From a virus, in the IMG/VR virus record IMGVR_UViG_3300020202_000074, positions 1,023 through 65,022 of that record: 64,000 nt of DNA; one strand, written 5' to 3'. Under the pieces are notes generated by a model that ran no database searches, was not told the DNA's origin, and saw only the letters and a program-made list of their open reading frames with translations. Shown here piece after piece: positions 21,328 through 23,907 of the stretch. The stretch's first letter is position 1; each line of letters opens with the position of its first letter. Both the position numbers and the translations under genes were made by a program.

Positions 21328-23907
21328 GTGGGAAATAGGAAACTTGGGCCAACCATGGAACGACGCGGCATCTCCCTGGATCTCGAAACGCACGGCGCCT
21401 GCGAAAAGGACTGGCGGGGTCGTCCCCTTCCCGATCAACGGATGTTCTCACCGTTGCGGTCCCTCGTCCTCGACAAGGTGCCGACCGACTCCCTCATCCT
21501 GACGTGCTGTCTCACGATCATCGAATCCTCCGGTGAGTCGTGGCTGGATTGGCTGGCCAACATGAAGCCAGGCAAAACCTTCCTGCTCGACCTCTCGCAG
21601 CGGTATCACCGGGAGATCCTCCGGTCGTGGCTCCGCTGGTCGAACGTCATCTTGGGCATGAACATCGGCTTCGACATCCAGTACCAGCGTGTGATGAGCG
21701 ATTTTCGGTGGCTCCTCGACGGCCGCCATACGATCATCGACGTCGCCGTCCTCAACTACCTGCACAGCGAGCTCCGTCCGGAACGGTCCCTCAAGACCCT
21801 GGGTCCCGTGCTCGGCACCCACGTCTATCGGCAGTCGATCAAGGACGGCCGGTTCAAGAGTCCCAAGGAGGCGAAGTTCCAGGAGTACGCCCTTAGCGAC
21901 CCGCACAACACCGTGCTTAGCGGTGGCGCCTTGGCCAGCCGCATCCGCGAGGAGTTCCGAGGCACCGACAAGCTCTCGACCTTCTGCGTGCAGCACTACT
22001 CCGACGCCCTGTGGGCCTGCATCCGAATGACGGAGGCCGGCATCCCTATGGACATCGACAAGCTCCTCGCCGAGGAGCAGAAGCTGCTGATGACCACGAA
22101 GGCCATCGCTCGCCGGTGCCGACGCAAGTACAACCTCGTCCTCGAAGGCGAGGGCTCCAACAAGTCCAAGGACGCCTTCATCAACCACGTCTGTGACGTG
22201 ATCGACACCCTCAACGGAATCCCCCCATGCCCGCTCCAGACCCTACCGCCCGAGTCCACGTCGTCAACCACCTCAGCTTCGCCGACTGGTTCACACTCCT
22301 CTCCATCTTCATCGGACAGCTCCTCATCTGCCAGTTCCTCAGTAAGATCGCATCGGCTATTGAGGCTGACCGATACCACGAAGAAGGTGGCGTTCTCCGT
22401 GGACAACCGCCAGCTGCTACTCAACCTGCTACCGCCTACGCACCCGCTGGCTACGCCACTGCGTCTGATTGGGATTCACACGACCTCGCAGAAGCTGTTG
22501 TCAACCTACACCTACAAGCTGTTGCGGCATCATCGTCGCAAGGTGTGGGACAACCGTGAGGTTCTTATCCCCACCACCATTCACGACCAGCTGTCGAAGG
22601 GACTCCCATGGACATCGAATCAATACACCGGTACAAGTCCCCAGCCAGCGACCCTGACATCCTCAGCATCACCTGGGTCGAGGCCAAGCCCCTCGGCGTT
22701 AGATACGAGTGGTTCATCAAGTGCCTCACTGCCCTCCTCCAGCGAGCCCGTGAATCCGTCAGACCCGGCGTCGATCCCCTCGACCCTCAGTCCGTCGCCG
22801 CCCTCGTCTGTGCGGCCCACCAGTACGCCAGCGCCTTCAGCCGGCCGGAAGAAATCCCGACACTCATCGCCGAAGGGCACTTGCCCAACCTCACTCTGTG
22901 CGCCCAAGCCTGCGGCGTTGACCTGGTGGTACGACAACACATCGTCGACCCCAACGGGCCGCACCCGAACGGGGATAGCGATCCCGAACTGGATGCTGAT
23001 CCCGACGCACCCGAAGGACGGGGCGGGTGACGCCGGCGGCACCAAGCAGGGTCGCATCACCGCCAAGTCGGCGGCCCAGCCCCAGACGTGGCCTCCCCTG
23101 ATCAAGAAGTGCATCAGATCAAGGTTCCCGAACGGCCGCCTCCTATGGAAGGACCTCTCGCAGATCGAGCCCCGCATCGCCGCGCTCAAGAGCGGCGACG
23201 CCTCCATGATCCGTGTCTTCACCGGCGGTGGCGACTACCACGACGACACCACGATCCAGCTGTTCGGCAAAGACATCGTCAACCATCCCCACTACCGAAC
23301 TGGGGACATGCGCGTCGACCCTCGGCAGTGGGGCAAGACCGGTGGCCTCCTCATCCTCTATCGCGGAGGGTGGGAGAAGATGCAGCACACCATCCTCGCG
23401 GACTCCGGCATCCTGCTGCCCGACGACCTCTGCCAGCGCGTCGTGAAGGCGATGCCCACCATCCGGCCCGGTCTCTGGGAGTGGCAGGAGCAGACCATCC
23501 GCCTCGCCCGCCGGGACGGCTACCTCATCGAGCCCTTCACGGGACAGTCCCGGTACTTTATGAACCAGGGCCGCAAGTCCGAGGACTGGGACGTCAACGA
23601 GATCGTCAACTTCCCCATCCAAACGTGCGCCGGCAACGTCCTCCTCCAGATCCAGATCGCCGTCGCCCGTCGATTGCCCTCGCTCAACAGCCTGGAGCCC
23701 CATCTCCTGATGTGCCACCAGGTGTACGACTCCATACTCTTCGACTGCGCGACGGAGTTCGACGTCGGCGAAGCCAAGCGAATCCTCGCGGAAGCGGTGG
23801 AGGAGGTGGCCACCGTCGGCTACTGGCACATGCTGGAAGAGCATTACGGCCGCCACGTCCCCCTGAAATACGACATGAAGGAGATCACCTTTGATCCGAT
23901 TCACTGA
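21328..23907 (+). CDS. polA: DNA polymerase family A with 3'-5' exonuclease domain and two low-complexity insertions
   Basis: ExoI SLDLETH, ExoII MNIGFD, ExoIII YALSD; motif A DLSQIEPR, B RQWGKTGGLLILY, C QVYDS. Confidence 0.9.
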   Translation: MGNRKLGPTMERRGISLDLETHGACEKDWRGRPLPDQRMFSPLRSLVLDKVPTDSLILTCCLTIIESSGESWLDWLANMKPGKTFLLDLSQRYHREILRSWLRWSNVILGMNIGFDIQYQRVMSDFRWLLDGRHTIIDVAVLNYLHSELRPERSLKTLGPVLGTHVYRQSIKDGRFKSPKEAKFQEYALSDPHNTVLSGGALASRIREEFRGTDKLSTFCVQHYSDALWACIRMTEAGIPMDIDKLLAEEQKLLMTTKAIARRCRRKYNLVLEGEGSNKSKDAFINHVCDVIDTLNGIPPCPLQTLPPESTSSTTSASPTGSHSSPSSSDSSSSASSSVRSHRLLRLTDTTKKVAFSVDNRQLLLNLLPPTHPLATPLRLIGIHTTSQKLLSTYTYKLLRHHRRKVWDNREVLIPTTIHDQLSKGLPWTSNQYTGTSPQPATLTSSASPGSRPSPSALDTSGSSSASLPSSSEPVNPSDPASIPSTLSPSPPSSVRPTSTPAPSAGRKKSRHSSPKGTCPTSLCAPKPAALTWWYDNTSSTPTGRTRTGIAIPNWMLIPTHPKDGAGDAGGTKQGRITAKSAAQPQTWPPLIKKCIRSRFPNGRLLWKDLSQIEPRIAALKSGDASMIRVFTGGGDYHDDTTIQLFGKDIVNHPHYRTGDMRVDPRQWGKTGGLLILYRGGWEKMQHTILADSGILLPDDLCQRVVKAMPTIRPGLWEWQEQTIRLARRDGYLIEPFTGQSRYFMNQGRKSEDWDVNEIVNFPIQTCAGNVLLQIQIAVARRLPSLNSLEPHLLMCHQVYDSILFDCATEFDVGEAKRILAEAVEEVATVGYWHMLEEHYGRHVPLKYDMKEITFDPIH
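22227..22559 (+). CDS. candidate overprinted membrane protein inside polA
   Basis: ATG after GGA; C3-biased first ~45 codons; TM FADWFTLLSIFIGQLLICQFL. Confidence 0.5.
   Translation: MPAPDPTARVHVVNHLSFADWFTLLSIFIGQLLICQFLSKIASAIEADRYHEEGGVLRGQPPAATQPATAYAPAGYATASDWDSHDLAEAVVNLHLQAVAASSSQGVGQP
22608..23030 (+). CDS. candidate overprinted protein inside polA
   Basis: SD AAGGGA; genome-typical C3 bias; coincides with S/P/T-rich pol insertion. Confidence 0.65.
   Translation: MDIESIHRYKSPASDPDILSITWVEAKPLGVRYEWFIKCLTALLQRARESVRPGVDPLDPQSVAALVCAAHQYASAFSRPEEIPTLIAEGHLPNLTLCAQACGVDLVVRQHIVDPNGPHPNGDSDPELDADPDAPEGRGG

Follow-up and report, generated by a model that had tools for sequence, protein, structure and literature searches.

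Probable small genes nested out of frame in loop insertions of a phage family-A DNA polymerase gene

The sequence examined here is a stretch of 64,000 nucleotides (positions 1,023 to 65,022 of IMG/VR virus record IMGVR_UViG_3300020202_000074; hereafter the window), which makes up most of the 65.5-kb record; it occurs in sequencing runs of soil metagenomes and in no RNA run. Its polA gene specifies a family-A DNA polymerase that carries two loop insertions, and we consider it probable that the open reading frame (ORF) at 22608-23030, in the -1 frame relative to polA, is a separate small protein-coding gene nested in one of these, with a second nested gene at 22227-22559 in the other. The original prediction, made from the letters of the window alone, proposed a real gene nested in polA whose off-frame reading the polymerase tolerates as a loop. 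This proposal is upheld by the codon statistics of the window and, more strongly, by a survey of related polymerases, in which the inner frame is open, a Shine-Dalgarno (SD) sequence and ATG stand at the edge of the insertion, substitutions follow the inner phase, and one ORF at the same site belongs to Pfam family DUF6117. The statistical case for nested genes at the level of the family is very strong; for the copy in the window the support is good but falls short of proof.

Table 1. The polymerase gene, its insertions and nested ORFs in the window, and insertion sites of the polymerase family (HMM, hidden Markov model)
Feature	Position	Strand	Number	Basis or remark
polA, family-A DNA polymerase with 3′-5′ exonuclease domain, 859 aa	21328-23907	+		single ORF; host gene read through both insertions
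Site B insertion, polymerase aa ~293-356, Ser-rich in the polymerase frame	22204-22395	+		phase-anomaly scan; alignment columns 450-580
Nested ORF B, 110 codons, same -1 frame	22227-22559	+		ORF listing
Site C insertion, polymerase aa 424-543, 120 aa	22597-22956	+		family HMM, insert state 398
SD-like AAGGGA, 5 nt upstream of nested ATG	22597-22602	+		sequence
Nested ORF C, 140 codons, -1 frame relative to the polymerase	22608-23030	+		ORF listing
Site A insertions, family	exonuclease domain		32	
Site 206 insertions, family	HMM position 206		3	
Site B insertions, family	HMM position 298		3	long ones
Site C insertions, family	HMM position 398		20	site of window ORF C

Nested ORF C

The site C insertion lies between the thumb (KLLSTY) and motif 2 (GGTKQGRIT) of the polymerase. 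Originally put at about 125 residues, it measures 120 by the family HMM, and read in the polymerase frame it is indeed rich in Ser, Pro and Thr, these making up 0.57 of its residues as compared with 0.16 in the polymerase core. The inner ORF, with its AAGGGA and ATG one base earlier, is present as described. It begins 9 codons inside the insertion of 120 codons and runs 29 codons past the end of the insertion, its tail overlapping the conserved core of the polymerase. Pairing of AAGGGA with the anti-SD sequence has a duplex energy of -5.0 kcal/mol; the median for genes of the window is -5.8, and the value falls between their quartiles. In the window, as in its nearest relatives, the ATG is part of CCATGG, a Pro-Trp codon pair of the polymerase; in locus L007 the corresponding context is CCTTGG, giving a TTG start.

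The bias towards C at the third position of the inner codons could also be verified (56% C, with 53-57% in the polymerase core). This C-richness is not independent evidence, because the base in question is also position 2 of the polymerase codons, where Ser, Pro and Thr have C. The inner ORF had further been credited with an ordinary globular composition. In an AlphaFold2 (AF2) model this suits residues 1-90, which are predicted to form a β-hairpin and three helices at a predicted local distance difference test (pLDDT) score of about 66-82, but not the last 50 residues, which are predicted to be disordered; the mean pLDDT is 62.

The polymerase itself matches Pfam family DNA_pol_A (1.5e-15), and it looks functional because the family-invariant residues of its exonuclease and polymerase regions are intact in an alignment with 18 relatives. 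Its identity to at least 73 metagenomic relatives is 40-47%, which is also the range of the best identities in the alignment and the locus scans; a representative search gave 50% with P0002 and 55% with the C-terminal fragment P0161, over the matched stretches only. Named phages show 24-30% identity by tblastn, in the C-terminal polymerase domain only. The polA region is identical base for base, with zero indels, in contigs of four sequencing runs, which may include the source sample. Paired assembly frameshifts are therefore unlikely, and no population variants of the region were found among these identical contigs. In run X4, which is of low depth, a 438-nt contig (22593-23030) spans nested ORF C almost exactly, with contig breaks at about 22569/22593 and 23006/23030; these may reflect chance coverage or a branch of the assembly graph caused by an insertion-free variant.

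The 11-mer TCCCCACCACC, allowing at most one mismatch, occurs 26 times where 2.5 occurrences are expected; one of these, an exact copy at window 22568-22578, lies 30 nt upstream of the ATG of nested ORF C. We rejected it as a promoter, its copies being mostly intragenic and in both orientations.

Insertions in the polymerase family

We fetched 170 loci from Logan, ENA, JGI, TARA and NCBI assemblies; the survey set comprises 119 distinct full-length polymerases from genomes with GC contents of 31-65%. Insertions, defined as at least 30 aa by HMM alignment, number 58 (53 of them distinct) and occupy four sites (Table 1). The -1 frame of these 58 insertions contains only 7 stop codons, as against 140 expected from the density of -1 stops in the core, while the +1 frame contains 134 against 137 expected. 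All 7 of the -1 stops can be set against an expectation of 83 in genomes with a GC content below 0.52 alone. When the codon order is shuffled within each of the 53 distinct insertions, 113 stops are expected in the -1 frame (7 observed) and 111 in the +1 frame (117 observed).

The base composition of the insertions is displaced in the same direction. The A+T content at the second position of the polymerase codons in the insertions tracks the A+T content at third positions (AT3) of the gene, with r = 0.85 and a slope of 0.71 over the GC range of the survey, and the slopes for polymerase positions 3 and 1 are 0.16 and 0.17, like those of first and second positions in the core. Polymerase position 2 in the insertions therefore acts as a third codon position at every GC content. 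Insertions in AT-rich relatives are not rich in Ser, Pro and Thr; the richness of the window's loop in these residues is a by-product of the inner gene's preference for C at its third position.

Most of the nested ATG codons are found within about three codons of the 5′ edge of the insertion. The median anti-SD pairing energy at nested starts is -5.7 kcal/mol, compared with -1.9 kcal/mol at 924 off-frame ATGs taken from the same genes as controls (Mann-Whitney p = 6e-13).

Homologous insertions, compared by frame-agnostic blastn in pairs that are not phylogenetically independent, differ by 0.11/0.28/0.22 at polymerase positions 1/2/3, and the core of the same pairs by 0.17/0.10/0.38. Expressed in the inner frame, the differences in the insertions rise from position 2 through position 1 to position 3, which is the ordinary pattern that a protein under purifying selection would leave. 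Divergence at the inner third position is dampened, which would be expected if the loop of the polymerase depended on it too.

The polymerase frame is likewise kept open. No polymerase-frame stop is found across the insertions, although 38 would be expected with the inner codons shuffled; for the window's insertion the corresponding expectation is 2.1, and the probability of finding none is 0.04. Among 145 complete polymerase genes only those of L046 and L164 are broken, leaving 143 intact, and ascertainment by ORF length cannot explain the open frame because of this proportion. The statement that polA of the window is stop-free throughout is correct for the whole gene. One-base frameshifts in conserved polymerase motifs of L008 (~2700-2760, Exo I) and L164 (~1560-1580, near site B) are probably assembly errors.

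Standard gene calling has met these ORFs independently. In L012 the caller reported nested ORFs at 3058-3489 and 3625-3975, together with a reverse-strand ORF, and cut the polymerase (2144-4933, 929 aa) down to a C-terminal gene of 310 aa.

The window and its clade

In the polymerase tree the window is sister to L012, L006, L007, L002, L004 and L003. All seven members of the clade carry a site C insertion with a -1 ORF, and many other high-GC clades of the polymerase have no insertion. The insertions are clade-wide on the tree and patchy only at its deep levels, the set containing no near-identical pair with and without an insertion.

The site C ORFs of the six sister relatives form one family. 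In a gap-free block of 42 codons their differences are 0.37/0.31/0.56 at inner positions 1/2/3; for example, a Gly of the inner frame is written GGT, GGA or GGG, for which the polymerase frame has Val, Glu or Gly. The ORF of L012, which was outside the training set, is recovered by the sister-clade HMM at E = 1.6e-11, and leave-one-out HMM scores are higher for the inner than for the polymerase frame in six of the seven clade members. The AF2 models of window ORF C and of a sister ORF both begin with an N-terminal β-hairpin followed by helices, and two central helices of ORF C line up by eye with the sister family, although homology is not demonstrated. Conservation of the inner frame in relatives gives a mixed result: the site and the clade show it, whereas the sequence of the window ORF, which has no detectable homolog, does not. 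Close relatives suitable for a dN/dS (nonsynonymous to synonymous rate) analysis of ORF C were sought with exact peptide patterns, profile scans and protein searches in IMG/VR and metagenomes, and none was found.

Codon phase in the window genome

A codon model was trained on the other 57 genes of the window. It scores the inner frame of the site C insertion as coding, with a log-likelihood difference of 0.49 where real genes have 0.57 ± 0.14, which corresponds to the 27th percentile among 110-codon windows of real genes. Read in the polymerase frame, the insertion is scored as the +1 frame of a gene (-0.37), a value that none of 200 true in-frame windows approaches, the lowest of these being 0.14. 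The three codon positions of the insertion resemble those of a normal gene displaced by one base, and A+T at the third position of the polymerase frame is 30%, compared with 11-14% in the core. A phase scan of all 58 genes identified the two polA insertions as the only long anomalies. All other anomalies are short, at 30-40 codons, and several fall in Ser-rich parts of virion proteins. Patches of this kind, with C-rich second positions and raised AT3, lie within 38146-38715, 43102-46836 and 50292-51194 (minus strand).

It is this shifted codon phase that exceeds chance in the window. Stops are infrequent in the -1 frame of its genes (0.017 per codon) because codons ending in T are rare in the genome; with the insertion's own codons shuffled, the probability of a -1 frame free of stops is about 0.04.

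The site B insertion behaves like site C, the codon model preferring its -1 frame too. Nested ORF B is preceded by a weak SD sequence (-3.5 kcal/mol), its product would contain one hydrophobic helix (best 19-residue Kyte-Doolittle window 1.79), and its distal half overlaps the conserved coding sequence of the thumb. In relatives the site B nested ORFs have a hydrophobic stretch, judged by eye to resemble a transmembrane segment; those of L003 and L004 have a Cys motif in common.

Identity of the nested products

The clearest identification comes from L094, where the site C ORF (1887-2171; 95 aa, in an insertion of 90 codons) matches DUF6117 with 48.5 bits (E = 8e-13; cut-off 27). A free-standing DUF6117 gene (1804-2073, 30.9 bits) is located upstream of the uracil-DNA glycosylase (UDG) and polymerase genes in the related L011, which is direct evidence that the cargo of L094 is a pre-existing gene captured into the loop and not a chance ORF. 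DUF6117 is absent from the window genome, and we found no mention of it in the literature. It is the only match among 31 nested ORFs compared with Pfam, and no nuclease or HNH domain was detected in these or in 10 ORFs, partly the same, compared with PHROGs. BLASTP of the nested ORFs against the fetched flanks revealed no free-standing homologs.

We have the impression of a common pattern, a β-hairpin and then a helix, in the ORFs of sites C and 206. A single superfamily embracing all of these was considered and dropped, the alignment being unconvincing.

Several further observations concern the other sites and the surroundings of the polymerase. Site A nested ORFs of L003 (3183-3494) and L094 (657-950) contain paired CxxC motifs, like a small zinc ribbon, and low-GC marine relatives have a conserved helical ORF of 58-61 aa at this site; the window has no insertion in the exonuclease domain. 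The polymerase is flanked by genes for an ERCC4-like nuclease and UDG across the family, and in several relatives a CsrA-family gene is found directly downstream (L002 12562-12777; L004 5446-5655).

Alternative explanations

A number of results weigh against a nested gene in the window. In a genome this rich in GC an open -1 frame carries little weight in itself: 15 such runs of at least 140 codons occur in the other 57 genes, and the -1 frame of the C-terminal polymerase core is open for 287 codons. These common long runs lend themselves to an explanation in which the Ser/Pro/Thr linker is the sole selected reading, C at polymerase position 2 both forbidding stops in the polymerase frame and mimicking a third-position C bias in the -1 frame. 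Other proteins have Ser-rich patches as well, and the short ones in virion genes show raised AT3 with no obvious nested gene, a caveat that the composition argument carries for the window alone. We nevertheless regard this explanation as improbable here, and at family level it is strongly disfavoured. The third positions of the polymerase frame in the insertion ignore the synonymous usage of the genome, and the frame scores as off-frame; the insertions of low-GC relatives are not rich in Ser, Pro and Thr, yet their -1 frames are open to the extent given above, and shuffling of the insertions' own codons still predicts the large excess of stops; many high-GC clades of the same polymerase do without any insertion; and the start signals, the inner-phase substitutions and the DUF6117 match would be left unexplained.

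The remaining contrary results concern ORF C as a living gene. It is an orphan, with no homolog in single-sequence and profile protein searches, PHROGs or Pfam and no usable match in the ESM Atlas; a Foldseek comparison of its model with the PDB likewise gave no match with E below 1. Even the site C ORFs of the sister clade are not significantly similar to it: it scores 1.3 bits against that family when held out, and hhalign joins the two only over the last ~25 residues, which overlap conserved polymerase sequence. The confidence of its AF2 model is moderate, the underlying alignment being shallow and perhaps non-homologous; A+T at its third position is 24%, about twice that of the polymerase core (11-14%); and an internal promoter was sought and not found. 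The orphan status, the raised AT3, the low recognition in the ESM Atlas and the disordered C-terminal 50 residues would all fit a decayed relic, that is, a former nested gene no longer expressed or selected in this genome, where only the loop reading of the polymerase matters. This is a real but small possibility in our estimation: the -1 frame is still open where shuffles predict about 2.6-2.9 stops, the SD sequence and ATG are intact, the codon usage is within the range of real genes, and all seven members of the clade have kept an ORF at site C. As an alternative, the original prediction had suggested that the segment is spliced out or bypassed by the ribosome. Inteins and group I introns are the classical insertions of phage polymerase genes, and the L046 polymerase is physically interrupted elsewhere, at HMM site 206, by about 900 nt (~1550-2463) with stops in the polymerase frame; the gap contains two ORFs in other frames, one with hydrophobic stretches, and may denote a two-subunit polymerase or an unrecognised intron. 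Removal or skipping of the segment, or a shift of the polymerase into the -1 frame and back, is nonetheless very improbable in polA of the window. Selection for a stop-free polymerase frame, evident from the stop counts and the unbroken genes reported above, would then be needless. Pfam reveals no Hint or intein domain, DNA_pol_A being the only match to the whole protein; no His-Asn followed by Cys, Ser or Thr was seen by eye at the C-terminal junction of the insert; an Rfam E-value scan of 21000-24300 detected no intron RNA family, the one match being at chance level and on the other strand; and no convincing flanking repeats or enclosing hairpin were found. A double frameshift would in addition have to evade the SD sequences, ATGs and stops that the nested ORFs possess.

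Two further candidates were rejected. Bypass of the type known from T4 gene 60 does not suit an insertion that contains no polymerase-frame stop, and the gap would be 360 nt long and coding-like in another frame. De novo overprinting on old host sequence is at odds with a typical inner frame and an off-frame-like polymerase frame, with the fact that the overlapped DNA is an insertion which most relatives lack, and with the membership of one cargo in a pre-existing Pfam family.

Proposed expression and origin

If ORF C is a nested gene, ribosomes translating polA would read through the insertion in the polymerase frame. The C-ending codons of the nested gene would place C on the second position of the polymerase codons, so that the loop formed on the polymerase surface between thumb and motif 2 would be rich in Ser, Pro and Thr and probably disordered. 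The corresponding place in the Klenow fragment is presumably a short surface loop between these elements. Other ribosomes would start at the internal SD sequence and ATG on the same mRNA and synthesise a protein of 140 aa. We infer that the phage makes both products, that its polymerase tolerates the loop and that the copy in the window still functions.

The exclusive use of the -1 frame may be accounted for by the fact that the synonymous third positions of the cargo are the second positions of the polymerase codons. As second positions decide the residue class, the loop could be kept hydrophilic and stop-free with the cargo protein unchanged. ORF C may have originated by capture of an existing gene, as with DUF6117, or by growth of the loop followed by birth of a gene. 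More speculatively, and as an idea that we hold to be possible rather than probable, surface loops of the polymerase may be safe harbours for non-nuclease accessory genes, captured repeatedly and one base out of frame at four fixed sites; the overlap would make the cargo hard to lose, and the -1 frame would let the loop be tuned to harmlessness without changing the cargo. The nested proteins could be partners of the polymerase, host-takeover factors or anti-defence factors.

Comparison with known systems

General literature searches for embedded genes in phage polymerases gave nothing specific. The closest described system is the ShiLan type of out-of-frame HNH insertion. The ShiLan domain is inserted in DNA methylase genes of mycobacteriophages without adding stops to the host frame (PMC11855218); this 2025 report describes out-of-frame insertions that are read through, encode HNH endonucleases and reside in a non-essential methylase, and it states that the nested ORFs have no recognisable ribosome-binding site. 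In both systems a phage enzyme gene has an insertion at a fixed site which introduces no host-frame stops and is believed to be translated as an additional loop; a complete ORF in the -1 (third) frame covers nearly the same extent as the insertion, and intein or intron features are lacking. In contrast to ShiLan, no HNH or other nuclease domain is detectable in the polymerase cargo. The insertions reside in an essential polymerase gene and occupy four sites with diverse and unrelated cargos, DUF6117 among them; SD sequences are clear at the nested ORFs, and on the tree the presence of the insertions follows clades. The polymerase insertions resemble a homing element in layout only, and we do not class them as such. 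Like inteins and group I introns of phage polymerase genes, they occupy conserved sites of an essential replication gene and are patchy among relatives, but splicing domains and RNA families are lacking here and the host frame is held open by selection.

Gene overlaps of other origins offer further parallels. Hepatitis B virus (HBV) is a very small animal virus that replicates by reverse transcription and whose genome overlaps almost throughout; its surface gene occupies, in another frame, a tolerant and disordered spacer of the polymerase, and the same DNA yields both products. The arrangement of a separate out-of-frame gene within a tolerant part of a polymerase is thus the same, but here the overlap occurs in a 65-kb double-stranded DNA phage and is confined to discrete insertions that many relatives lack. 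Rz/Rz1 of phage lambda and the embedded genes of phiX174 also consist of a small gene with its own start, wholly inside a larger gene on the same strand in another frame. Those overlaps formed on ancestral sequence of the host gene, and the partners act together; in the polymerase the overlapped DNA is an insertion, it is the host frame that looks off-frame, and a functional link is not known.

Significance

What is new here is the extension of the gene-within-gene layout to non-nuclease cargo in an essential replication enzyme. Out-of-frame insertions are a recurrent, selected feature of this polymerase across soil, freshwater and marine phages. Standard annotation, which allows one gene per stretch of DNA, leaves the nested genes invisible; calling them instead truncates the polymerase, as in L012, and can corrupt database annotation. 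Ser/Pro/Thr-rich loops in proteins of GC-rich phages can be the shadow of a gene in another frame. With about 50 natural examples, the family lends itself to studying how constraint is shared between two frames and whether accessory genes are less easily lost when nested.

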